Made by a program: the position numbers and the translations under genes. A DNA stretch of 64,000 nucleotides from Malacoraja senta. Taxonomy: Eukaryota. The stretch covers positions 3,846,001-3,910,000 of the forward strand of contig CM075990.1 of NCBI GenBank assembly GCA_038087875.1. The letters are read 5' to 3'. Below, piece after piece: positions 2,614 through 62,310 of the stretch. A model generated the notes under the pieces. It was not told where the DNA came from, searched no databases, and saw only the letters and a list, made by a program, of their open reading frames with translations. Position 1 is the first letter of the stretch; the number at the start of each line of letters is the position of its first letter.

Positions 2614-3600
2614 TTAAACAATAGCAACAGCACTCAATATTGAGTTAGCAAACAGCCCTCCATCGGCAATCGGCCGATGGTAGTATTGCTGAAACACAAG
2701 TTCATTTTTCCAACCTGCGGCTTTTAATATATGGTCGATGGGAACGTCCATCGCCCTGGCCGCGGATGTTGCTACTGCGCTAGTGGAATGAGATGTAAAC
2801 ACATAAATGTTAATTCCTGCCTGAACCAACTCTTGCTTTAACCACCTTGAGATAGTCTGAACTGCCACTCTTTTATGTTGGCTTTTTGTAACTGACAAAT
2901 AATCCTGTTTCTTCTTGTCTTAAAGCCCTTGTGGCTTCAATGTAATGTAACAAATGTGTCCTTACACATAAACATGGAGCTGTAGGATATGCTGAGAACA
3001 CAATCTTAAAACCTGTCACACCTGGCCTGCTTTGTTTGAGCAGGTCAGAATATAAAACAGAACATTCTCTGTATTCACTTCCATTCTCTCGAACTGAAGT
3101 TTTTTGGAAAGTCTGCACTGTCTGTACTGACACCAATGCCATTAGCATAGCCAATTTCATGGTTAATTTTAACAAAGTTATAGCCGTGACAGGGACCCAA
3201 TGACGAAGTATGTTACGAACAACGCTTACCTCGCAGATTACCATATACCTAGGCTTAGGCGGTTTGGAATTAGATTCCTTTCATCAACCTAGATATGAGA
3301 GGGTGAGAACCTATACTTTGTGTCCGTGTACCTATTACAAGATATGCCGACCAAGCACTTCTAGCTGTATTGATAGCAGTATAGCTAAGACCTTCATCAT
3401 AATAAAGTGTAGATAAACTCTAACACATTTTCAATAACTACAGTATCATATTGAATATTCTTTTGAACACAATATTGTTCCTTTTTTTTTCTTTTTTTTT
3501 TTTCCATAAGTCATATACTGTTTTTGAGTACTCTTTCTCCAGACTGCAGCGAGTATATACACCGTTGGCCTAGAAAGTCCTCGACCAATGTAAGGCATTC
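2614..3600 (-). pseudogene. DIRS tyrosine recombinase, frameshifted
   Basis: ORFs 2873-3244 (LTMKLAMLMALVS...) and 2614-2898 (SHSTSAVATSAA...AAGWKNELVFQQYYHRPI; HSTR-like box and catalytic Tyr region); upstream boundary approximate. Confidence 0.85.
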
Positions 3601-3779
3601 TTGAAACCTGCAAACTAACAGATCCATACTGTCACATAACGGATGAACTTAATGCGTTACTGGATGCTCCAGCAAATTCCTACTGTTTGGAATCAGCAAA
3701 AAGAGGTTGGATCGCTATCTGTAACATCAAAGGGAACCATGGTTGAATCAGGCAATTTGGTATCACCAAAACCCTTGAA

Positions 3780-3930
3780 GCGGCATCCTGCTTGATTTTC
3801 TCAAACACCGACCTACGAGGCAGAATGGTGGGAAAATGTACACAAACATATCATCCCAATTTAGTGAAAAAGCATCAATTGCCACTGTCCCTGGATCTGG
3901 TGCCTATGAAACATATTTTGGCCTTCCATA
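3780..3930 (-). pseudogene. DIRS methyltransferase-like (MT) domain remnant
   Basis: Manual translation RPKYVS*APDPGTVAIDAFSLNWDDMFVYIFPPF matches the DAF..W...Y.FPP signature of the DIRS MT domain; in-frame stop. Confidence 0.75.
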
Positions 3931-3989
3931 TAGAAGTACTATGTTCTTGAACACATCCTGGTTCCACATCCACTCTGTGTTATGATGGA

Positions 3990-5250
3990 ATTTTCGTGAG
4001 CTGCCATCTGGTACTACATTAAGTTTCCCTGGCAGATAGATAGCTCCAATCCAAATCTCTCTATCCCTACTCCAGGTCCAATTGTATTTGCCAACCTGTC
4101 ACATGATAACAATTTGATTCCACCCATGTGATTCATATCAGCAACTGCTGCAGTGTTGTCTATTTTGCACTGCACATGCAAACTAGTTTAGTTAGTGCCA
4201 TAAGCCTTGAGTCCATAAAATAGTCTTGGTTAATTCCCCATGTTTGCAGAAGCAATGTTCATCTGTCTCCACCGCTGGATCTTGTATCAGTAGCACCCTA
4301 CCCAAGTGCTCTGACATCTGTCTGCAAATCATGGAAGCTTGGTCCAATAACACTTTGGAACTACTAGTGGACACATGCTGAATCCACCATTGTACATCAG
4401 CAACAGCCTCTATTGATAGAAGCATAGGTCTATTATAATGACCCCAATGTATCCTCAATGCTTGTTCCTTTGACCTTTGTAATTGTAGATAATAAAGTGG
4501 CCATATTGAACTGCTGGAAATGCTGCCAGCCATTACCACAGCAGTCTTGTCACCTAGCTAATTGAAGGCTGTGTGTTAGCAATTAACTTGATATAGCTCT
4601 TAATTAGCTCTACCCTTTTTTGCCTGGGCAAGGTCACAATGATGTTGATTAAGTCCATTGTGAACCCAACTAGTCAATTTGTGTCACAGGTATAAATTTA
4701 GATTCCTCAGAATAGTTTATAAAGCCCAATTAAAAAATGGTTTTTACCAACTGCCACTGATGCTTCAGCTGTTTCCTTTGATTGTCCTACAATCAAGATA
4801 TTATCTAGAAAAGCCATGAGCACATGGCCTTGACTTCTCATCATGCCTAGAATAGGTTTTAACAACTTTGTAATCCCTCTAGGAGCTGAAGACAAACCAT
4901 TAGGCAGTGGATTGTATTGGCATAATTCCCCATCCAGCTGAATTTTAAATCTTCTATCCTGGAAATGAACAGACACTGAATCCGCATCTTTAAGATCTCC
5001 TTCACAAACGTTTCCATCTTAAAATGTCTATACCGTACAAAAGGGTTAAGCCTATTCAGGTCTGTATAATTCTGCATCCCCCCATCCTTTTTTGGTCTGG
5101 GAAAGATATTGGACACAAACTGATGGCTTTGGTAAACTGCCTTAGCAATTACACCTTTATTACATCAGCTTGCAAGTTCCAGCTGAACTTCCAATTGTTT
5201 AGTGATACTGAAGTCAAACTCCTTTTTTGGAACATGTTGCATGGGTAAAT
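3990..5250 (-). pseudogene. DIRS reverse transcriptase and RNase H, frameshifted
   Basis: SNIFPRPKKDGG..DLNRLNPFVRYRHFKMET; LPNGLSSAPRGITKLLKP...AFLDNILI (YLDD motif decayed); KIDNTAAVA and IYLPGKLNVVPD RNase H motifs. Confidence 0.88.
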
Positions 5251-5414
5251 CAGAATTTGCATTTAAGCTTTATTTGATGCCCTTGAATAACCTTCAGTAT
5301 AAACATATCTGAGGTAAACATTTAATTGTATCACATTAGATCTGTCTACATGAGAACCAGACCCTCTTACCTCCTTACCACCTGGCATTCTTCCCCGGCC
5401 TCGAGCTGGATATC

Positions 5415-6836
5415 TCACCTCCGTGGCGGTGCTATAGCCGAACGCCAACTGCGCTGCATCGTAGCTGGACTCGTCCCTTGCCCGGACCAGTCTGCTCCCT
5501 TATAGGGATACTTCCGCTTTGGTGAATACGTGGCTGCCGTCTTAGCCTCCTCCTCCAGCTCCTTCACCTGCTGTGCGAAATCCTCGCCAAACAGCTGTGC
5601 CAGTTGCACTGTGCCAGGCTGGCAGAGTGAAGCATATTTAGCATTGATGGTTGGTCTAATCGCATCTTGCGGAGGCAATTGATCTCAAAGTGGGCACTCC
5701 ACAATAGCGCCTTTTGTTGTAATTTGTCATGACCTCTCCATCCACCATCCTGGCAAAGCTCGTTATACCAGATGCCAGCAACTTTAAAAATATGCTGGAG
5801 CTTCACATGCTCCTGGGCTTTCATTAGTATGCCCATCTTACCCCAATTCTTCCTGTTCCCAACAGGAACTTTTAACAGTCCACAGTTGATTGGGGCTTCA
5901 TACTTCGTTACTGTCTCATCCATTGTCAGCTCCTGTAGCTGATGTGAGACTTGGTAATTTATGCTGGTGGCAAGTTCCTCACCCAGAGGCTCACCAGCAT
6001 CCGACGACATGGCAAACCGTGCTGCACACGGTGTCAGCTCTGACAGCTGCCTGCCCTCCCTTTGGAAGTCGTCGGACTCGGGGTCAGAGCATATCTGCCC
6101 TTCTGCACTCACCTCTTGCAAAGAGGGTGCTTTCAAGCAGGCCTCTACTAGGCACTGCCAGCGGAGCCGTCCCCACGGCCTCCCGCCTGCACAACTCCTC
6201 CTGGAGTATGGTTTTATGAAGCAGACCTCTCCTAGGCACTGCCAGCGGAGCCTTCCCTAAGGCTTCCCGCCTGCACTACTCCTCCTGGAGTTGTGGCTTT
6301 ATGAGGCAGACCTCTCCTAGGCACTGCCAGCAGAGCCTTCCCTATGGCTTCCCACCTGCACTACTCCTCCTGGAGCGTCTCTGTGGAGCAGCCCCTGTAT
6401 GAGCTGCTCCTTTTGGATAACCGCTGGGGAACGGTATCCTGTCCCCGACGGGACTCTCGTGGCCCGACTCTGCGGAGTCTATAGCCCTGACAGACTTAAC
6501 TTATGCCGACCGCCCGACTGGCGTTGGCTGTGTACCCGGCTGGGCACTTTGCCAAGTCTGTCGCTGCACCGCTACCAGCTTGCGACTCCCCCGAGGTGAC
6601 AGGCTGCCTTTCAGAGACTGCGTCCCGCAGCTCTCGCTCTCCTTGTCGGCAGCAGCCTGCACCTTTTCCTTGTTCCTGTATGTGCGGGAAAAAACACACA
6701 AAACAATTTCTTTACTTTTTTCTAACTCCTCCAAAGTCTCCCCGACTTTGGTGGAGCTGTATTTACTCACGTTGCAGCAGGAGCTCCGAGCTCCGGCTGC
6801 CGTTGTCGCCAATGCGTCAGACGTAATGACGCGCAT
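5415..6836 (-). pseudogene. DIRS gag-like ORF1, frameshifted
   Basis: Overlapping ORF pieces 6501-6836, 5564-6136, 5415-5678 (LFGEDFAQQVKEL resembles DIRS gag C-terminal region) upstream of RT. Confidence 0.65.
6142..6375. repeat. ~2.8 tandem copies of an 84-85 bp unit inside DIRS gag
   Basis: cctctMctaggcactgccagc... recurs at 6142, 6226 and 6311. Confidence 0.9.
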
Positions 6837-17372: not shown

Positions 17373-19656
17373 TTACTCATCAAGAATCTATCATTGACAC
17401 CCTTACTAATCAAGAATCTATGCTAGAGTGTGCGGAAATTTGGAAAATTTGTAGTTATTTCACAAGATGCATTTTTAATAACAACAATGATGCTTCGTTG
17501 CATATCACACGCATATACATGTGTGGGAAGGAACTGCAGATGCTGGTTTAAACCGAAGATACACACAAAATGCTGGAGTAACTCAGTGGGACACTGAGTT
17601 ACTCCAGCATTTTGTGTCTCGCACACATACACGTTGGACACAATCTCTAAAATGGGACTCTTTAATTGGATATGATGGGTATACGGGCCCATCAGTGGAG
17701 CAGTGTAAATGAATGGGTGGGAAACGGAGAGATTCCAGATCAAATCTTTGCTTAGGCATGACATGGCTTCCTCCAGCGCCTTGTTTGTGTTCTACGTTGA
17801 GTCTTTAGCCAGGTGTGCCAGGAAGGATGTGGTCCAAGAGCACTATTCCAGTCAATAGATGCACAATAAGGCAATGTCTTCCCAGTACGGGGAAGGTATC
17901 CGTGTGGAAAGGAACTGCAGATGCTGATTTACACTGAAGTTAAGACACAAAGTGCTGGAGTAACTCAGCGGGTCAGGCAGCATCCCTGGAGAAAAAGGAT
18001 GGGTGACATTTTGGGTGGAGACCCTTCTTCAGACTGAAAGTAGAGGGGGAGGGAACTGGAGGTAAGAAAAGACAAGAACAAAGCAGGAACGGCAAATATG
18101 TCGCCATGTTCTACTGGATCCTTGTCAGTCTGCAACCTATAAGTTCATAATTTCTTGGAGAAGAGTCATAGAATCAATAGACAATAGGTGCAGGAGTTGG
18201 CCATTCAATGTGATCATGGCTGATCATCCCCAATCAGTACCCCGTTCCTGCCTTCTCCCCATATCCCCTGACTCCGCTATTTTTAAGAGCCCTATCTAGC
18301 TCTCTCTTGAAAGCATCCAGAGAACCTGCCTCCACAGCCCTCTGAGGCAGAGAATGCCACAGACTCACCACTCTCTGTGAGAAAAAGTGTTTCCTCGTCT
18401 CCGTTCTAAATGGCTTACTCCTTATTCCTAAACTATGGCCCCTAGTTCTGGACTCCCCCAACATCGGGAACATGTTTCCTGCCTCTACCGTGTCCAAACA
18501 CTTAACAATAGGTCATAGAGTAATACAGTGTGGAAACAGGCCCTTCGGCCCAACTCACCCACACCGGCCATCAATGGCCCAGCTACCCTACTTGCCTGTG
18601 CTTGGTCCATATCCCTCCAAACCTGTCCTATCCATGTACCTGTCCAACTGTTTCTTAAACGATGGGATAGTCCCCGCCCCAACTATCTCCTCTGGCTGCT
18701 TGTTCCATACACCCACCACCCTCTGTGTGAAAAAGTTACCCCTTGGATTCCTATTAAATCTTTTCCTCTTAGAATTAGGCCATTGGGCCCATCAAGTCTA
18801 CTTCACCATTCAATCATGGCTAATCTATCATTCCCTCTCAACCCCATTCTCCTGCTTTCTCCCCATAAACACTGACACCCTTTCTTGACCCTGTCTTGAA
18901 CAGCTCCATCTAAAACAGCAAGAAACTGCAGAGAATTGTTGACGCAGCCCAGACCATCACAGAAAACGACCTCCCTTCCATTGACGCCATCCACATATCA
19001 CGCTGCTTCAGCAAGGCCAGCAGCATAATCAAGACCAGGGGTACTGAGGGCCGGAAACACAAGTTAGAGTGCAGCCCTGACCTCTCATCTACTTCACTGG
19101 AGACCTTTGAACTATCTTTGAAGACCTTTGAAGACTCCCATCTCCTTCATTGAAGACCTTTGAACTAAAAGGAAGATTGATCCTGTGCTAAACACAAGCT
19201 GTCGCTGCATCAATGGATGCATGAAACCTGCCAAGACTGACCACATCTGCCTACTCTCTGGCATTGCCCCCGCTGTAGCTAGTAGAGCTGTAGCTAGTCA
19301 AAAAAGAACGCCTCAGACAATCAGAGGATGAAAGACATCCCCGACATGATCACCCTTTGCTACCTCAGCGTTTGAAATCACGCAGAAGTTTCCTCACTTC
19401 TGTCCATCCTCTGGACTGCAGTGCATCGTCCAGGAGGCTCAGACTCTGGGAAGAGAGACTAGAGAAATCTCCGGAAGGCATTCACAGGGCAATCGATCCC
19501 TTCGAGAAACTCCCACCAGGTTCCGACCAACCGTGGATAACCTGGCGCAGTCTCAACAGACAGCGGACAGGCGCGGGGAGGAGCAAATTGAAGATGCTGA
19601 AGTGGGGATATACTGAAGATGCGGCAGATTGTGAGTGCAGACGGGGCCTCCAGGAC

Positions 19657-20324
19657 CGTGTGTGGATGTGGCGCCGAAGGACGAGAAGCTGAAGTAAAGA
19701 AGTCGAAGCCAAATAGCTGAATGGAAACTAAGCTGAAACGTCAACAAACTGAAAGCATACGAAGCCAAAATGCCACCTAACCGAAAGGCTGCGTCGCCTA
19801 CAAGCCAACTAACAGAATGCCGCTCTGCTGAAAAGTCAAATAATGGCTTGTGTGAGAAAATGACCCCCACCCTCCAGTTTCCACCGGTCAGTCATGTGAT
19901 GGACGCGGGGGGGTCTGGAACAATCACTGACAAGTCCCGACCCCCGGCGAAGTCATGTCCGTTATTTGACTTTTCGGCAGAACGGCATTCGGTGAGTTGG
20001 CTTTTAGGCATCCCGCCCTTTCGGTGAGTTGGCTTTTAGGCGTCCCGCCCTTTCGGTGAGTTGGCTTTTAGGCGTCCCGCCCTTTCGGTGAGTTGGCTTT
20101 TAGGCGTCCCGCCCTTTCGGTGAGTTGGCTTTTAGGCGTGCCACCCTTTCGGTGAGTTGGCTTTTAGGCGTGCCGCCCTTTCGGTTAGTTGGCTTTTAGG
20201 CATCCCGCCCTTTCGGTTAGTTGGATTTTAGGCGTCCCGCCCTTTTGGTTATTTGGCATTTCGGCTACGTTTCCATTCGGCTATTTGGCTTCGACTTCTC
20301 ATCCTTCGACGCCACGTCTGGGTA
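19657..20324. mobile_element. Fold-back (Mutator-like) non-autonomous DNA transposon
   Basis: Long inverted arms (gtggcgccgaaggacgagaag...tcgaagccaaatagctgaatggaaac vs gtttccattcggctatttggcttcgacttctcatccttcgacgccac); flanking direct repeats cctccaggac / cctccagaac. Confidence 0.7.
19988..20243. repeat. Minisatellite, 8 x 32 bp
   Basis: Unit ttcggtgagttggcttttaggcgtcccgccct starting at 19988, 20020, ... 20212; no spacers. Confidence 0.95.
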
Positions 20325-21261
20325 CCTCCAGAACAACTCCTGAGCTGTGACATGCTGCATGACACATGCACTGTAAAGGACCTCGCAGAGGCCAAGAGAT
20401 TCAAGATTCAAGAGAGTTTATTGTCATGTGTCCCTGATAGGACAATGAAATTCTTGCTTTGCTTCAGCACAACAGAATATAGTAGGCAACGTGGCACGCT
20501 ATTGGCAAACAGTTGTGTGATGACACAAAATAATATAAATTATCTTCAATCAGATGTTATCTTGCACTAAGTGTTGTGTCCTTTATCTGTACTTTAGACA
20601 GCTTGACAGTAATTATATCGTTATTTCTTTAACAGGATAGCACGCACCAAAATCTTTTCCTGTACCTCAGTAAATATGTCTCTTTCCACTGAGACACAGT
20701 ATGGCCCTTGGCACTGAAATCATAAGATCATAAGACATAGGAAAAGAATCAGGCCCTTCAGCCCATCAAGTCTGCTTTACCATTCGATCAATTTTTCCTT
20801 CTCAACCCCATTCTCCTGCCTTCTCCCAGTAATCGTTGACACCAGTACTAGTGAGGAATCCGGCAATCTCTGCTTTAAAAAATACCCAATAACTTGGCCT
20901 CCACCGCTAATGAATTCCACAGATTCACCACCTTCTGGCTGAAGAAATTCCTCTTCAAAAGGTTGCTTTCAGTAATATTAGAAAATCTTTCCCCTTTGCA
21001 TAAGATCTCACCCAGCAGTATCTCAGTTCCAGTAGTCAATAGACAATAGACAATAGGTGCTGTAGGCCATTCGGCCCTTCGAGCCAGCACTGCCATTCAC
21101 TGTGATCATGGCTGATCATCCACAATCAGTACCCTGTTCCTGCCTGCTCCCCATATCCCTTGACTCCGCTATCTTCAAGAGCTCTATCTAACTCTCTCTT
21201 CAGTGTATTTATTCTCCCATTTGTATCGTCATTCATCTCCCTCAATGTACACCTCGCCCAG

Positions 21262-34547: not shown

Positions 34548-34975
34548 TCATTAATTTTAATGGTGAGAAATTCATCCCCCTACACCTTGGCTTAGTCCCT
34601 CAAGTGTCCGAATTATGGGACTATCCATTCCCGAAGATAAAGCTTATTTAACATGTGGTGAAAAGTCAAATTCGTTCTGTCGTTTGACTTCCATTGTCTA
34701 TTCCACTCATAATTACAAATCACAACCATTAGATTGAAGACACGGAGTGCTGGAGTAGCTCAGCGAATCAGGAAGCATCTCAGGAGAACATGGATAGATG
34801 ACATTCCCATGGTAGTTGTCCATCCATCTTCTCCAGAGATGCTGCCTGACCCCGCCGAGCTACTCCAGCACTCTGCATCTTCTTTAATAAACCCTGCCGT
34901 TCCTTTTTTCTACAACTATTAGATTGATTGGAAGGCACAACATGGAAACAGGCCCTTCAGCCCTTCAGCCCATTG

Positions 34976-35616
34976 GGAGAGATCATCCCATGCCAAGAAA
35001 CTAGACCCAGCGTTGAATAACACCTGCCGCTCAATCACTGGTTGCTTGAAGCCCACCAACATAAACAACCTGCACCTCCTCGCTGGCATTGCCCCTGCTG
35101 ATGTGAGACGGAAAGTCGCCAGCCGAGTAGAGATGACCAAGGCCACTAATGATGAACGCCACCTCCTCTACGGACGTGTACCCCCGGCCCAACGGCTGAA
35201 GTCCAGGAGAAGCTTTCTCAGCCATGTCCAGCCCCTAATAGCATCATGGGAAGAAACCAGACTCCAACTATGGACAAAAAGGCTTGAGGACGACCCCCCC
35301 TCCTACTGACATGGGTATCCCTCCTTCTGAAGCCCTCCCACCGGGCTGGGTCCAGTGGAAGATGCTCAACCGCCTGAGAACAGGAACAGGGCGATCAAAA
35401 GATGCCATGGCCAGATGGGGCTATGAAACTGGCCAAACCACCTGTGAATGTGGAGAAGAGGACCACACAATGCAGCACTGCCTTGTCCGCCCCCTACTAC
35501 CCAACCAGTGCAGCTCAAAGGATCTTGCAGTGTTCAATAAAAATGCAAAGGACTGTGTAAAGGAATGGGAAACTGTCATATAGCCAACCAGCTTCAAAGA
35601 CACGAAAAGAAGAAGA
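34976..35616 (+). mobile_element. Vingi/Ingi-like LINE, 5'-truncated, with 9-bp TSD
   Basis: LAGIAPADVRR...WKMLNRLRTGTGRS...CECGEEDHTMQHCL; tail gacacgaaaagaagaagaag; TSD agcccattg at 34967-34975 and 35617-35625. Confidence 0.75.
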
Positions 35617-37522
35617 AGCCCATTGAGTCCACGCTGACCAACAATCACCTGTTCACACTAGTTCAGTTTAGTTTAGTTTAGTTTAGAGATACAGTGCGGA
35701 AACAGGCCTTTAACAGGCAAATTAGGCCATTCGGCCCACTCCGCTAACCAATCAAGGCTGATTTATCCCTCCCTCCAAACCCCATTCTCCTGCCTTCTCC
35801 CCATAACCCCCGACACCCATACTAATCAAGAATCTATCAATCTCCACCTTGAAAAATATCCACTGACTTGGCCTCCACAGCCGACTGTGGCAATCATTTC
35901 CACAGATTCACCACCCTCTGACTAAAGAAATTCCTCCTCATCTCCTTTTCAAAAGGTACGTCCTTTTATTCTGAGGCTGTGGCCTCCGGTCCTAGACTCT
36001 CCCACTAATGGAAATATCCAAGCCTTTCACTATTTGGGAAGTTTCAATGAGGTCCCTCCTCATCCTTCTAAGCTGCAGCGAGTACAGGTCCCAGTTCCGT
36101 CAAACGCTTGTCATATGTTAACCCACTCATTCCTGGGATCGTTCTCGTAAACCTCCTCTGGACCCTCTCCAACGCCAGCACATCCTTCCACAGATAGGGG
36201 GCCCAAAACTGCTCATAATATTCCAAAGTCTGACCAGTGCGTTATCGAGCCTGAGCATTACATCCCTGTTTGTATATTCTTGTCCTCTCCAAATAAATGC
36301 TAACATTGCATTCGCCGTCCATGGAGTCAGGGGATATGTGGAGAAGGCAGGAATGGGGTACTGATTGGGGATGATCAGCCATGATCACATTGAATGGCGG
36401 TGCTGGCTCGAAGGGCCGAATGGCCTACTCCTGCACCTATTGTCTATTGTCTATTGTCTACTACGGATCAAGTATCTCACATGATTTAGTTGACGGGAAG
36501 CGGAGATCTACCTCAAAGCAATGACCCCAATGTCCAAAATATGACATCATATGCCACGTCATACAACAAAACATAATTCATATGATACCAGCTCCATGGA
36601 AATATAGTTTGTTTGATGGTGTGACTGCTTCTGTTGTGACAGCAGCCAGCCAATGCAACACATCTCTCTGAACACATCCTGTTCATTCTAGAATGTCAGG
36701 CAAGTAGATAATAACACTCTAAGAGGCAAGTAGATAATAACACAACCCCAAGGAACAATAGTGATAAAAAGTTAAATGGAACGATGAGACTTTGGATCTT
36801 ATTTCATCCTTTCTCTCCCATGTTCAGTGTGCTGCAGACCTGCCCTCAGTTTTCAGAGCTCCTCTACATCAGCTCTCAGATTTCCATTCCCACTCAGTCA
36901 TGTTTACCTTCACTCCAGTTGCCTGTTTCTCTCTGAGCCAAATTCCTCCATATTGCTATTACTGTTATCCCTTCATAGTAGCTGTTTTAAAAAAATCATT
37001 ATTAAGTTACAGCCTGCGTTTTCGGAAACTTACGTATTTTTCATTGCGGACTGAAGGTCAACTCCCCTCTTTATCTTTGCCCTACTTTTACGTCTAAAGT
37101 ATTTTTTGTTTTGTCCTTTCTGGTTTCTCGATTACAGTCCCAGTTAGACCATTTCATGTATTCTTTGTGCCTATATTGTAACAAAGCCTATTTTGTTCGT
37201 GCCTCCACCGACCATTGATCACTTTTCTGGTCTTTCTTTAACGTAACCCAGGCAAACCCAACTATATGTGACAACAAACTACAGCAGATGCTGGTTGATA
37301 CCACAGGTAGACACAGAATGCTGGAGTCACTCGGCGGCTCAGGCAGCATCTCTGAAGAATATGGATAGGCAATGTTTCCAGTTGGGTACCTTCTTCAGAA
37401 TGACCCGAATCGTCAGCTATTAATTTTCTCCAGAGGTGCTGCCTGACCTGCTAAATTACTCCAGCATTTTGTGTCTATCGTAAATCCATTTATACGTTTT
37501 CTGATAGGTTTAAGATGAGAGA

Positions 37523-37856: not shown

Positions 37857-37986
37857 AAGATTGCAACCATCACGTGGTCCACCCAGTTTTGACTAATGCA
37901 ATCAACCCGACGTGCACAAACAAATAGATCAAATAGAACAAGTTGTTCTACAACTTGAGGCTGTGCACGCCATACGCAAGGAGAAG
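37857..37986 (+). mobile_element. ~130-bp mini-retroelement (HDV-like head plus Vingi-like tail), copy A, 5' P1 strand missing
   Basis: Homologous to 57577-57716; ends ccatacgcaaggagaag. Confidence 0.75.
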
Positions 37987-54715: not shown

Positions 54716-55189
54716 CATTAAATGTCTTTCCAGTCTTTGTACGTGTAGTCACCTTTATTAATTCTGTACTGCAGTGGCTATATCACCTCTGTACCTTAAG
54801 TTGTGAATTCAGTTCTGCGTAACCTTCCATCCGTCCTTATCACCATACATTTGAAAACTTGATTTCTGCAGCATGAGAAGTTAATTCTTTGTCTATCCTT
54901 CTCAATTCTTATAACGAAAAATGTAAATATCGAGAAAAGCTAGTCTCAGCATGGCATGGATTATATTCAGAATTAAGTTTTGGTTACCGCAGAAGCATTT
55001 TCAGTCAGGTAAGTCAATATTTTACTTGCCACTTGGTGACACTTCGAGTAGGTTTTCCTACTACTTATTATGGACTACTGTGCTAGATAGCAAAGTTAGC
55101 AGTCTAAATTGCCTTATCTGTATTTAATATGTGAAAGTCTATTAACTGTTCACAACTTGCTCTGATAAACGTGCATTGTTGCATTTCAG

Positions 55190-55301
55190 TTGAAAACACT
55201 GGGAGATTGTTCATAGCTGGAGGGGCAGCTCTTGGGCTTGGAGCCCTCTGTTACTATGGATTGGGAATGTCCAATGAGATTGGAGCCATTGAGAAAGCTG
55301 T
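55190..55301 (+). CDS. GHITM: GHITM coding exon 3
   Basis: (F)ENTGRLFIAGGAALGLGALCYYGLGMSNEIGAIEKA(V); tttcag acceptor, GT|GTGAGT donor; 112 nt, phase 1 to 2. Confidence 0.96.
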
Positions 55302-56723
55302 GTGAGTATATCGCTCTCGGCAAGTAGCTATGTGGAGTAACAGCACAATTATTCTGTCAAACATGTAGTATTGCTGAACTTTATCTCTGTGCTGAATGTT
55401 CAGCACCATTTATTCCGAGATTTGTGCTCTTCCCGAAAATGGTTCCCACCCTTCCTGACTTCAATGAATGCAAATTTATTATGCAGATATTCTTGTTGAG
55501 GTTTTGAGTATTTAATCACTAGATGGGCAGAGGAATCCATATCATAGTTGGGGCAACTCTTTGTGCTTGTTTTGGTCTGGCAGTAGCAGTCACTGAACGG
55601 TGATCAGTGGGAATCCTAGCATTTGGAGTGTGGGAGGAATCGTTGGAATGTGGGAAGAAACCGAAGATCTCAGAGAAATCTCATGCCGGAGGACGTACAA
55701 ACTCCGTAGTCAGGATCGAACCCGGGTCCCCGGCCCTCTAAGGCAGTAGCTCTACCGTGCCGCCCAAGATGGTGTAGATGATCAATTGTCATCCCAGCTG
55801 TGAGTTACATGCGGGTCAAACTTGGTACCTTGGCTCAAGTCTGGAATTAATTATCTGGAAAATTAATATAATCTATGGCTCTGTAATATATTCTTAGAAT
55901 GGGATAGATGGATGATAATAGTCTCCTCCAGTCTAGTTCATTACAATGAAACTGTTGTTAAAACTGGGTGGTTTTAAAGAGCAATAGGACATTGCACCAA
56001 ACCAGCGGGATAACTAGGCAGCACATTGGCGCAGCTGGTAGAGCCTCTGCCTCACAGCTCAAAGCCCAAGTTCAGTCCTGATCTCCATTGTTTACTCATT
56101 TTTTAAGAACTGGCATGGATGTGATGGACCAAATGGCTGCCTCTTGAAAAAGCAGCGATATCTCTAATTAAAGTTGCACTTACCTTTTGTGATTTATAAA
56201 AGACCATCTCTCAAAGGTATAAAAATTCAACTCGTTTCTCATGGTCTCTGTGGGCTGAAAAGCGCTGAGCACTTGTCTTCAAGACAACAAACAGTTTTTT
56301 TCAGTTTTTCCCAGTCTTGCTATCTTAGCTATTGAATCGGGTATCGGGAAGCATGCTGAAGGATGCAGGTTAATTAGTCTGAGAACGTGCAGTCATAATC
56401 TTGCTCCAGTACCTGCAAAAACCAACTGGAACCATTTTGCTGCAACATAGGATCTTTCCGTCTGAGAAACCTGTTGCACTGGATCAACATTGAGTTATCA
56501 ATGAGGCTGGTGAAACATGCAAACACAAAGTGCTGGAGTAACTCAGCGAGTCAGGCAGCATCCAAAGATGCTTTCTGACCCGCTGAGTTACTCCAGCATT
56601 TGTATTTTTTTTTTTGTTGCAAACCAGCATCTGCAGTTCCTCGTTTCTACTGGTGAAAACAAAATTTGCATTGAAAATCAAGGCTTGTTTAAAGGCTACT
56701 AACCCTGTTGATCTGTCCAACAG

Positions 56724-56865
56724 CATCTGGCCACAGTACGTAAAGGAGAGGATTCACTCCACATACATGTACTTTTCAGGAAGTGTGGGGCTAACCGCAC
56801 TCTCGGCCCTAGCAATCAGCAGGTCGCCAGCAATCATGAATCTGATGACGAGAAGTTCATTTCTG
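56724..56865 (+). CDS. GHITM: GHITM coding exon 4
   Basis: IWPQYVKERIHSTYMYFSGSVGLTALSALAISRSPAIMNLMTRSSFL; caacag acceptor, CTG|GTAAGT donor; 142 nt, phase 2 to 0. Confidence 0.96.
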
Positions 56866-57576
56866 GTAAGTTGCCGAGAATAGTCCTTGGCTTCTATTTG
56901 CTTATAATAAAGCCTCCATTATGTGGAGCCCTTTGAGTGGTTTGTTACCCTGAGAATTATTTTAAATCTTCCTCAAGGGATTGTCATATTCTATTTGTTT
57001 TCAATATTTTAACTTTGTTAATTCATCACCAACCTAAGTTAGTTTGAGGATGACTTAATGGATGGCAACTCGCAAGTTAAAATTGTGTAATAGCTTCTTG
57101 CCTATCTAAGTAAGGCTTCTTGCCTATTTAATATTTAACAATGTCTGAATAAGACAGAGGTTTGCAGTAGGAAGCCAGGTTAATGGTTCCCAGGTTTGGG
57201 TCTTTGGAAATTTTCCTCAAAGGCTGGTAAAGGACAATTTTTGAATATTTAAGGCTGTGGTTGATAAATTGCTGTTGAACAAGTAAGTGAAAGGTTACTG
57301 GGGGTAAACAAGAATGGAGAATTCAATTGCAGTCCAATATTTCATGATATTAAATGACATAGCAGGCTTCAGGGGTCAAGTAGTCTACTCCCACACAAGG
57401 TGCTGTGGCCTCCCACCAAACTTTGTCACTTCTGCTTTAAATACTTTTGGGGGGGGGAAATCTAACCTTTAGTTGTAAGTAGTTCTGAGAGATTCGTACT
57501 GACCATGGGGGAGGGGGGGGTGCGCAGTGGCCATAGGGCTTTGCAGTGTTGGAGACACGGGTTCGATCATTACTAT

Positions 57577-57716
57577 GGGTGGGAGATTGCAACCTTAATG
57601 TGGTCCACCCTGTTTCGACGAATGCAATCAATCTGGCATGCACAAACAGAAGATCAAACAGAACAAGTTGTCTTACGACTTTAGGCTGTGCACACCATAC
57701 TCAAGAAGAAGAAGAA
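57577..57716 (+). mobile_element. ~140-bp mini-retroelement (HDV-like head plus Vingi-like tail), copy B, with 12-bp TSD, inserted in a V-SINE
   Basis: TSD gatcattactat (57565-57576) / gatcattactgt (57717-57728); ends ccatactcaagaagaagaagaa. Confidence 0.8.
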
Positions 57717-57858
57717 GATCATTACTGTGGGTGCTGTCTGTATGGAGTTTTTATGTTCTCCGCATGGGGTTTTCACTGGGTGTTCCGGTTTCCTCCCACA
57801 CTCCAAAGACGTACAGGTTTGTAGGTTAATTGTCGTCTGTAAATTGTCCCTAGTCCAT

Positions 57859-61296: not shown

Positions 61297-61648
61297 GAGC
61301 TAGTCCATGGCTGATCGCTGGTCAGCATGGACTCGTTGGGCCGAAGGGTCTCGACCCGAAAAGTCACCTATTCCTTTTCTCCAGAGATGCCATCTGACTG
61401 GCTGAGTTACTCCAGCCTTTTGTGTCTATCTTTGAGCCGAAGGCCTGTTTCCATTCTGCATCTCTAAATAAAACTATTATAACTAACAAAAAATCTTTAA
61501 GAACTACACACGGTGAGAAACAGTAAATTTCCAGTTGAGGACATTTTGGTGTTAAAGACCTGTCCCCTTGGTTAATATGCATAGTTTTGCACATTTATGC
61601 AAGGCATCAACTCCCTGATACCCATGTCCTTTCTCTCATTGTTAACAG

Positions 61649-61757
61649 GCCATAGGAGCAACATTTGCAGTAATGATCGGAGCGGGTATGCTGGTGAGAT
61701 CTCTCCCATATGAGAAAGGACTGAATGCTAAGCACTTTGCCTGGATGTTACATGCAG
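61649..61757 (+). CDS. GHITM: GHITM coding exon 5 (gene continues beyond window)
   Basis: AIGATFAVMIGAGMLVRSLPYEKGLNAKHFAWMLHA(G); ttaacag acceptor, CAG|GTGAGG donor; 109 nt. Confidence 0.96.
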
Positions 61758-62310
61758 GTGAGGAATGTCTTGAGATTTATTTTCAAGTTAAATAACAAAT
61801 GGCATTAATTTTGGTCAGATGAAATTCATAAAACAATACGCTCGTGATACCCTGCCTACCAACCTAAGTGTTCACTTCTTCCACCACTGGTGCACGATAG
61901 CTAAACTGTGTACCAACTATAAAATGCACTGCAGTTATTTACCTATGCTACACTGACACCTCTACAAACTCTGCAAGCTCTACTACAAATAAGAGTAGCA
62001 GGCACATGGAAGTACCACCACTTGCAGATCTTCCAAGTCAAACTCGAGCTGATTATTGAAAATCAAAACTGCCAATGCGGGAAATCTAAAATGATAACAG
62101 AAAATGCTGGAAATTCTCAGCAGGTCAGGCCACATCTGTGGGAAGAGACATAGTCAACGTTTATGGTTGAAGATCCTTTCAACAGAACTTGGAAAGAGAC
62201 AAAAGTGCAGGTACCTAGTTTCCTTTAAAATGGCATCACAGGTAGATAAGGTAGTCGAGAAGGCTTTCAGTACATTGGTCTTCAGTAAAGGGATTGAATA
62301 TAGAAGACAG

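Follow-up and report, generated by a model that had tools for sequence, protein, structure and literature searches.

The window analysed here is a 64,000-nt stretch of Malacoraja senta contig CM075990.1. Its plus strand carries three exons (55189-55302, 56722-56865, and 61646-61760) of a gene that we take to be GHITM, after the human protein; the Pfam Bax1-I model gave a weak signal on one of the three (E value, 0.0056, below the cut-off). In sense orientation, in an intron between these exons, lies an element of ~140 bp (57577-57716, plus strand), which is one decayed copy of a short family (S1) derived from a Vingi-like LINE, called K. The element is inserted within another dispersed repeat, whose 3' part occurs five times in the window. 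Every motif listed by a sequence-only reading of the locus, namely, P1, P2, P3/L3, J4/2, a (GAA)n run reaching 57716, and a target-site duplication (TSD), was recovered where that reading had placed it. The features are as follows; further letters denote other Vingi-like LINE families.

19170-20395, plus strand: interrupted Vingi-like LINE fragment of family D; not the parent; its C-terminal peptide equals that of family D.
34974-35619, plus strand: 5'-truncated Vingi-like LINE of family A; not the parent; full-length A carries a CPEB3-like head.
37858-37986, plus strand: second, older copy of the S1 family; 5' P1 strand lost; 94.5% identical to a K head over 73 nt.
57565-57576, plus strand: 5' TSD; its last base, T, occupies the place of the family's G1.
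57577-57629, plus strand: predicted HDV-like ribozyme of the minimal, P4-less kind, covering positions 2-54 of the family fold of 54 nt; contributed by the 5' end of LINE K and decayed in the window copy.
57577-57582, plus strand: P1 5' strand; partner, 57605-57610; the next base, 57611, is the U left over from the lost G1.U pair.
57585-57591, plus strand: P2 5' strand; partner, 57623-57629; between families, both partners differ in 6/7 P2 pairs.
57592-57604, plus strand: P3 (57592-57594 with 57602-57604) and L3 (57595-57601).
57619-57622, plus strand: J4/2; C57619 is the predicted catalytic cytosine.
57634-57644, plus strand: 5' arm of the predicted end-to-end helix, from the K 5'UTR; 9/11 pairs remain in the window copy.
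57645-57667, plus strand: A-rich linker, made up of what is left of the K 5'UTR piece and a short duplicated stretch where the deletion was joined (joint read by eye).
57668-57684, plus strand: what remains of the end of the K ORF, its final codons and stop (..DLQL-stop in K).
57687-57697, plus strand: 3' arm of the predicted end-to-end helix, from the K 3'UTR.
57698-57716, plus strand: terminal motif and (GAA)n tail, common to K.
57717-57728, plus strand: 3' TSD, 11/12 identical to 57565-57576.

Other repeats are present in the window. In the GHITM-like intron lying upstream, an inverted repeat of 80 nt (56524-56603), nearly perfect, scored far below the cut-offs of the miRNA models and is probably a short repeat element. 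At 19985-20290, in the insertion that interrupts the family D fragment, a 30-nt unit is repeated about eight times in tandem, and decayed reading frames on the minus strand (2617-6256) resemble what we take to be a tyrosine-recombinase (DIRS-type) retroelement.

S1 numbers thousands of copies. Its 21-nt core is matched exactly at 4,274 places in the 1.94-Gb genome, versus none for the reversed control, and a DNA search returned 2,712 candidates, the best 40 of the 2,712 scoring 94 to 100%. Since the exact core is present in only four of eight distinct copies met by chance in 598 kb of unrelated loci, the family likely totals 8,000 to 25,000 copies. Forty core matches taken without bias comprised 38 short elements and two inverted K heads. 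TSDs are 8 to 16 bp long, with a mode of 11-12 (24 unbiased copies); together with the duplication around the window copy, they bear out the proposal that the element retrotransposed as a unit. In sequencing runs of eight organisms, two of which are possibly the source, 60 to 100% of the element's words were present, and contigs from four other organisms showed identical variants and an unchanged 5' boundary (counts there include repeat flanks). The 130-nt and the 136- to 138-nt subfamilies keep different parts of K at the deletion joint, suggesting that more than one deletion event lies behind the short family. A tandem array with a period of ~3.1 kb holds one copy of the 130-nt subfamily per unit (L142-L144, G000:C20:6.84-6.86 Mb; L numbers designate loci).

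The family fold spans 54 nt and consists of a 7-bp P1 that opens with a G.U pair, a 2-nt J1/2, a 7-bp P2, a 3-bp P3, a 7-nt L3, a single P1.1 pair, five bases in the place of P4, and a J4/2 that begins with a cytosine. The 6-bp P1 previously drawn from position 57577 is correct in its pairing but not in its start, which lies one base earlier in the family, and the vestigial P4 once suggested is in fact absent, 5 nt separating J1/4 from the catalytic C. The sequence-only reading likened this ACC-N7-GGT P3/L3 to that of L1Tc. G1 is present in 49/59 near-full copies and in 29 of the 33 readable starts among the 38 unbiased copies, so that, at the family level, the 5' end of the element coincides with the predicted cut. 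An HDV-like descriptor run over 590 kb of fetched loci found 69 matches, whereas the reversed and the shuffled controls each yielded 0. Copies collected by DNA search, as had been advised, retain P1, P2, P3, and the J4/2 cytosine as a family, and the common subfamily changes in the head all preserve the fold and avoid the core; 19/38 unbiased copies, all picked for an intact core, are fully paired. A head derived from a small RNA (tRNA, 5S, 7SL, or snRNA) with a Pol III promoter, as in strict-sense SINEs, was sought and not found (ARAGORN, 0; Rfam, none), in agreement with the initial statement that there is no tRNA head; the head comes from a LINE.

Comparison across families supports the HDV-like assignment. 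In an alignment of 16 distinct heads from seven families, whose rows are related and one of which (H_095) is shifted by a base, 94.1% of cells are paired, versus 73.3 ± 1.7% after shuffling and 37 to 48% after sliding; 64 cells are changed on both sides, versus 18.7 when shuffled, and the covariation score is 0.604, versus 0.204. Two further measures were not significant: pairs with a double change (11/18 versus 9.0 ± 1.1; 30/500 shuffles) and the number of pair types (281/500 shuffles). Within the short family, we found one-sided changes only and no compensatory pair. The cytosine at the first J4/2 position, which is the catalytic one in minimal HDV-like ribozymes (PMC10879173), is kept in 16/17 rows; the U and G of L3 are present at the family level, and this cytosine and the following AA persist across families with wholly different helices. 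The heads of S1, K, and J, like the window copy, gave no match to Rfam RF00622 at its cut-off of 35 bits. The family head is predicted to be a minimal, P4-less HDV-like ribozyme.

The short element consists of the fused 5' and 3' ends of K, a decayed Vingi-like LINE, joined by internal deletion. The window copy is 91.7% identical to the K head over its first 72 nt, and its tail matches K at 30/33 positions, with a score of 51 versus at most 15 for the tails of A, B, C, D, E, F, I, and J. All 20 K 3' loci share the ORF end, 19 of them terminating in the element's tail, and 17/23 K 5' loci (two duplicate pairs among the 17) carry the same head, followed by the 5'UTR, the ATG, and the start of the APE domain. 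Head and tail are collinear ~3 kb apart in L320, L317, and L313, the first with a TSD. K has at least 150 scored 3' ends versus 23 matches for the 5'UTR and ORF start; all K copies seen are frameshifted and 88 to 92% alike, no intact ORF occurs among the 150 scored (longest open frame, 406 aa), and 7/18 copies with a tail have exact TSD matches of 9 to 12 bp. K is collinear with A over residues 8 to 986 and contains RVT_1, and its 120 closest long relatives are mostly APE-RT proteins of ~1000 aa, none listing an RNase H family. Vingi elements are described as having a single ORF of ~1000 aa with APE and RT, no RNase H, and a length of ~3 kb (PMC13708176, available text), and this architecture would place K in the Vingi clade. 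An Anolis RT protein is 54% identical to A and 29 to 50% identical to pieces of K.

K came to light through three tail-only matches with a common upstream reading frame in the 400 kb around the 40 unbiased core matches, two of these loci being 5'-inverted LINE copies that bear the element's head; two protein searches, each with 50 of 150 places inspected, had shown eight families, K not among them. Other candidates were rejected. A search for a parent with a longer P4 gave one match, a local duplication in a short copy, and one based on a Trp four codons before the stop, as in 94/120 relatives, gave 41 matches, of which all those inspected proved to be short copies or fragments. In K, the Trp lies eight codons before the stop, and the TGG of the 130-nt subfamily comes from the K 5'UTR. 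Family J was discarded as parent since, although its tail shares 11 nt with P2, its head differs. This stretch is the J 3' arm (in the tail of L189), matching the P2 5' strand of S1 (window, 57583-57593), possibly by chance; the J end helix and S1 P2 thus have nearly the same sequence.

Non-CpG divergence is 3.1% among 24 unbiased copies of the main subfamily, b (the window copy's own subfamily had two usable copies), and 2.2% among K heads (n = 15, eight of the 23 loci having been dropped, two as duplicates and six without a head). It is 2.9% for K 3' ends (n = 20) and 0.7% for family A (n = 29), two sets of best matches that are biased low. Identity among the best BLAST matches was excluded from dating, as the top matches of thousands are biased. 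Because the divergence of the short element fits K and not A, the element and its parent appear to be of one age.

In every family for which both ends were paired, an arm of the 5'UTR just behind the ribozyme is complementary to the 3' end. In the short element and in A, this arm lies 4 to 5 nt behind P2, and its complement directly precedes the terminal motif. In an all-against-all table with one chosen copy per family, a family's own arms form the most stable duplex in 7/8 rows. Shuffles as good as the own arms number 0 to 5 in 2000 for 8/9 pairs and 61/2000 for D, whose arm is weak, two foreign tails binding it better. The heads of B, D, and E came into view only after their tails had been examined and arm complementarity had been set as the test, although the arm itself helped to link the E head with the E tail, which makes this case partly circular. 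Moreover, an A.C mismatch in the K arm is repaired in the dominant derived subfamily, and an unrelated metagenomic full-length Vingi-like element (L333) has an arm in the same register, with 11/12 pairs counted by eye and 77/2000 shuffles as good.

We consider it likely that this two-ended derivative of K spread by predicted ribozyme self-excision and with the help of K's enzyme. A transcript, arising from the host or by read-through, or from an internal promoter as in L1Tc, would run through a copy; the 54-nt pseudoknot would then cut 5' of G1 by means of the J4/2 cytosine, leaving a 5'-OH end that is both defined and protected. The arm that follows the ribozyme at a distance of 4 nt would pair with the arm before the terminal motif, closing the RNA end to end and exposing the (GAA)n, and the endonuclease/reverse transcriptase of K, acting in trans, would copy this RNA by target-primed reverse transcription. 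An RNA of ~135 nt would nearly always be copied whole, ribozyme included, whereas the 3-kb parent would mostly end up 5' truncated or inverted; this difference may account for the ~19:1 excess of the short form over K heads. Among these steps, we infer cleavage, helix formation, and protein recognition. Many Vingi-like copies are inverted at the 5' end and retain a ribozyme head at the inversion, and many K heads end just 3' of the P1 5' strand (loci showing one or the other: L089, L092, L093, L102, L252, L268, L315, L316, L318, L322, and L327).

An unlikely alternative shares the origin from K but regards the fold as an inherited relic or a stability cap, transcription starting at the first base from an internal promoter and the G deriving from the cap. 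The L1Tc head is indeed both promoter and ribozyme according to the available parts of PMC3185411 and PMC4035085. The G lies outside the TSD in 12/23 copies, as a cap-derived base would, and is inside or ambiguous in the other 11; yet it faces an invariant U in all families, with G.U in 11/16 rows (absent in the window copy and in the copies of a second short element, S2, which start without the extra G). The lack of P4 in the family head would also suit a relic, but P4-less HDV-like ribozymes are active (PMC10879173, in part). Some trypanosomatid short elements with a good fold are inactive in vitro (PMC4035085, in part); in the families studied here, however, the catalytic C and AA are conserved despite wholly different helices, and subfamily changes spare the ribozyme core.

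The sequence-only reading had proposed a SINE-like composite of a ribozyme head and a LINE tail, mobilized by the Vingi-like LINEs of the window (19170-20395 and 34976-35616). The Vingi-like tail and mobilization by a Vingi-like LINE hold, but the head is LINE derived too, and so is the whole element; the partners named do not fit, the tail scoring 14 with D and 11 with A and giving no alignment to the window's A and D tails. Family A does have a (GAA)n tail in common with the element and is young, with open frames, and no intact K is present among the copies seen, which would permit late cross-mobilization by A or J. Nevertheless, since both halves match K and no other family and the divergence fits K, a composite origin moved by A and D is largely refuted, and we judge it very improbable. 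The element is instead an internal-deletion derivative, of the LINE-derived two-ended class (NARTc/RIME and R2 SIDE type) that is already known.

The window copy is probably inactive as a ribozyme, because it lacks both G1 and the P1.1 cytosine. Relative to the family L3, TTCACGT, it carries A for C at 57597 and T for C at 57599, confirming the earlier remark that its L3 is mutated, and the former change breaks the sole P1.1 pair (with G57612), making this copy the only exception to the C-G P1.1 found in 15/16 distinct rows. Its predicted fold has an alternative hairpin replacing P3, whereas an intact head folds P1 and P3. Folding energy, computed with a program blind to the pseudoknot, was not significantly better than that of shuffles, with z values of +0.9 for the window copy and -1.5 to +0.5 for three others. 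A regulatory cleavage of the GHITM pre-mRNA in the manner of the CPEB3 intronic ribozyme, as had been envisaged from the sense orientation of the copy and its intact catalytic C, P1 positions 2-7, P2, and P3 pairing strands, is highly implausible given these losses.

Sister families carry related heads. Family A is young, with open frames of 1008 to 1014 aa that encode APE and RT and no RNase H, and its heads score 40.7 to 63.8 bits on the Rfam CPEB3 model (RF00622; cut-off, 35). A genome search with this model placed 39 of the 51 listed matches above the cut-off; the top 30 are heads of A, B, D, E, and H (the last without family assignment) and six S2 copies, and heads of A, B, D, E, and S2 pass the cut-off. 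Family J, also young, has a head with the same P3 as the short element and a long P4; the heads of C, I, and F were sought and not found. Later help in mobilization from A or J is possible. Two full-length A copies (L061:3516-3720 and L062:3569-3720) begin with three to five tandem repeats of the 28-nt P1-to-P3 part, apparently produced by template jumps at a 4-nt repeat within P1. S2 is ~165 nt long, with TSDs and the 54-nt P4-less geometry (L101, L103, and L107-L110). It derives from F, whose ORF end it contains and to which it is 82 to 88% identical over the last 76 to 90 nt (L195-L197 and L201); a back-translated pattern had given no match for its parent, and F was then found by protein search. 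A ~250-nt internal-deletion derivative of family D with a TSD is present at L094:1250-1568.

The sister LINE heads share with the CPEB3 ribozyme the L3, the single C-G P1.1, and J4/2, at up to 64 bits. Heads of family D (L092, L094, L096, and L105) align with the Rfam CPEB3 consensus without gaps but for one loop base and share the letters of the P4 stem, a part free of sequence constraint, and a metagenomic head (L332-L334) differs from this consensus at two of the first 37 positions, as read from the printed alignment. The CPEB3 ribozyme is a single-copy, conserved, intronic sequence, whereas the K/S1 head differs in P1, P2, and P3, has no P4, and is unscored by the model. In the metagenome, three of 20 loci pass Rfam, all of one family, and a relaxed descriptor recovers the same three among 19 loci (one chance match in 95 shuffles), many others being decayed or without a 5' end; the generality of ribozyme heads outside this genome is thus thinly shown. 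Another metagenomic Vingi-like family (L350, L369, and L401) has a decayed head with the P3 5' strand and L3 of K. Solo and inverted heads are frequent in the present genome, the human genome retains a Vingi relic (PMC5753468, in part), and a general proposal exists that intronic ribozymes were domesticated from mobile elements (PMC7761336, in part). We regard descent of the CPEB3 ribozyme from a Vingi 5' end as a likely hypothesis.

We lean, by a modest degree, toward a wider reading, that Vingi LINEs as a group carry an HDV-like ribozyme at their start and join the ends of their RNA through a 5'UTR-3'UTR helix, and that the mammalian CPEB3 ribozyme arose by domestication of a Vingi 5' end. 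Ribozyme, helix, and tail would be enough for spread, and the clade would therefore yield parasites of 130 to 170 nt.

Several known systems are reminiscent of S1. NARTc, RIME, and SIDER, derived from L1Tc-ingi elements in trypanosomatids (PMC4035085 and PMC3185411, here and below in the available parts), likewise arose by internal deletion that keeps the 5' HDV-like ribozyme and the 3' end of a LINE, from a closely related clade and with a single-pair P1.1. S1 differs in its animal host, its parent without RNase H, its length (about half), its thousands of dispersed copies, and its lack of the P4 present in L1TcRz; the end-to-end helix is a feature of S1, and the accessible parts of these two articles show none for the trypanosomatid elements. 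The R2 SIDEs and R2/R1 hybrids of Drosophila (PMC3414825, in part) also combine a 5' ribozyme with a LINE 3' end and use target-primed reverse transcription in trans, but those elements are rare, specific to rDNA, and served by a restriction-like endonuclease, whereas S1 is dispersed, abundant, and dependent on an APE-type LINE. Bipartite nonautonomous Vingi derivatives, such as that of Vingi-1_EE (PMC5786205, in part), belong to the same clade by architecture and also arose by internal deletion keeping both ends. Minimal P4-less HDV-like and theta ribozymes match the S1 head in the absence of P4, in the catalytic C first in J4/2, and in a size of ~54 nt; nearly 99% occur in Caudoviricetes phages, often behind tRNAs, and the portion of that report at hand mentions none from the eukaryotic genomes searched (PMC10879173), whereas S1 heads are borne by animal retroposons. 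Some metazoan LINEs and SINEs use HDV-like ribozymes (PMC6765202, in part).

Our literature searches, with Repbase, Dfam, patents, and supplements outside their scope, returned no report of a Vingi ribozyme, a P4-less ribozyme in an animal, an end-to-end helix, or descent of the CPEB3 ribozyme from Vingi. A term search of PMC8233481 gave no occurrence of "origin" or "transpos", and the available parts of PMC10919898 and of a 2026 AbRiDGed preprint contain nothing on such an origin. A 2026 review of RNA-only gene-writing platforms names ribozymes for R2 only and states that the Vingi driver "unusually retains" its 5'UTR.

If the wider reading is true, all four LINE clades known for two-ended short derivatives carry a 5' ribozyme, which would explain this bias and fill a gap in PMC5786205. 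P4-less HDV-like ribozymes would gain a first animal home and a job, in thousands of copies, some of them intronic. At ~135 nt, the element would be a natural minimal template for Vingi enzymes, which serve RNA-only gene writing, and the question of where the CPEB3 ribozyme, which is linked to memory in mice, came from would become directly testable. The copy in the window is probably a dead relic; the importance of the finding rests with the family and its parent clade.
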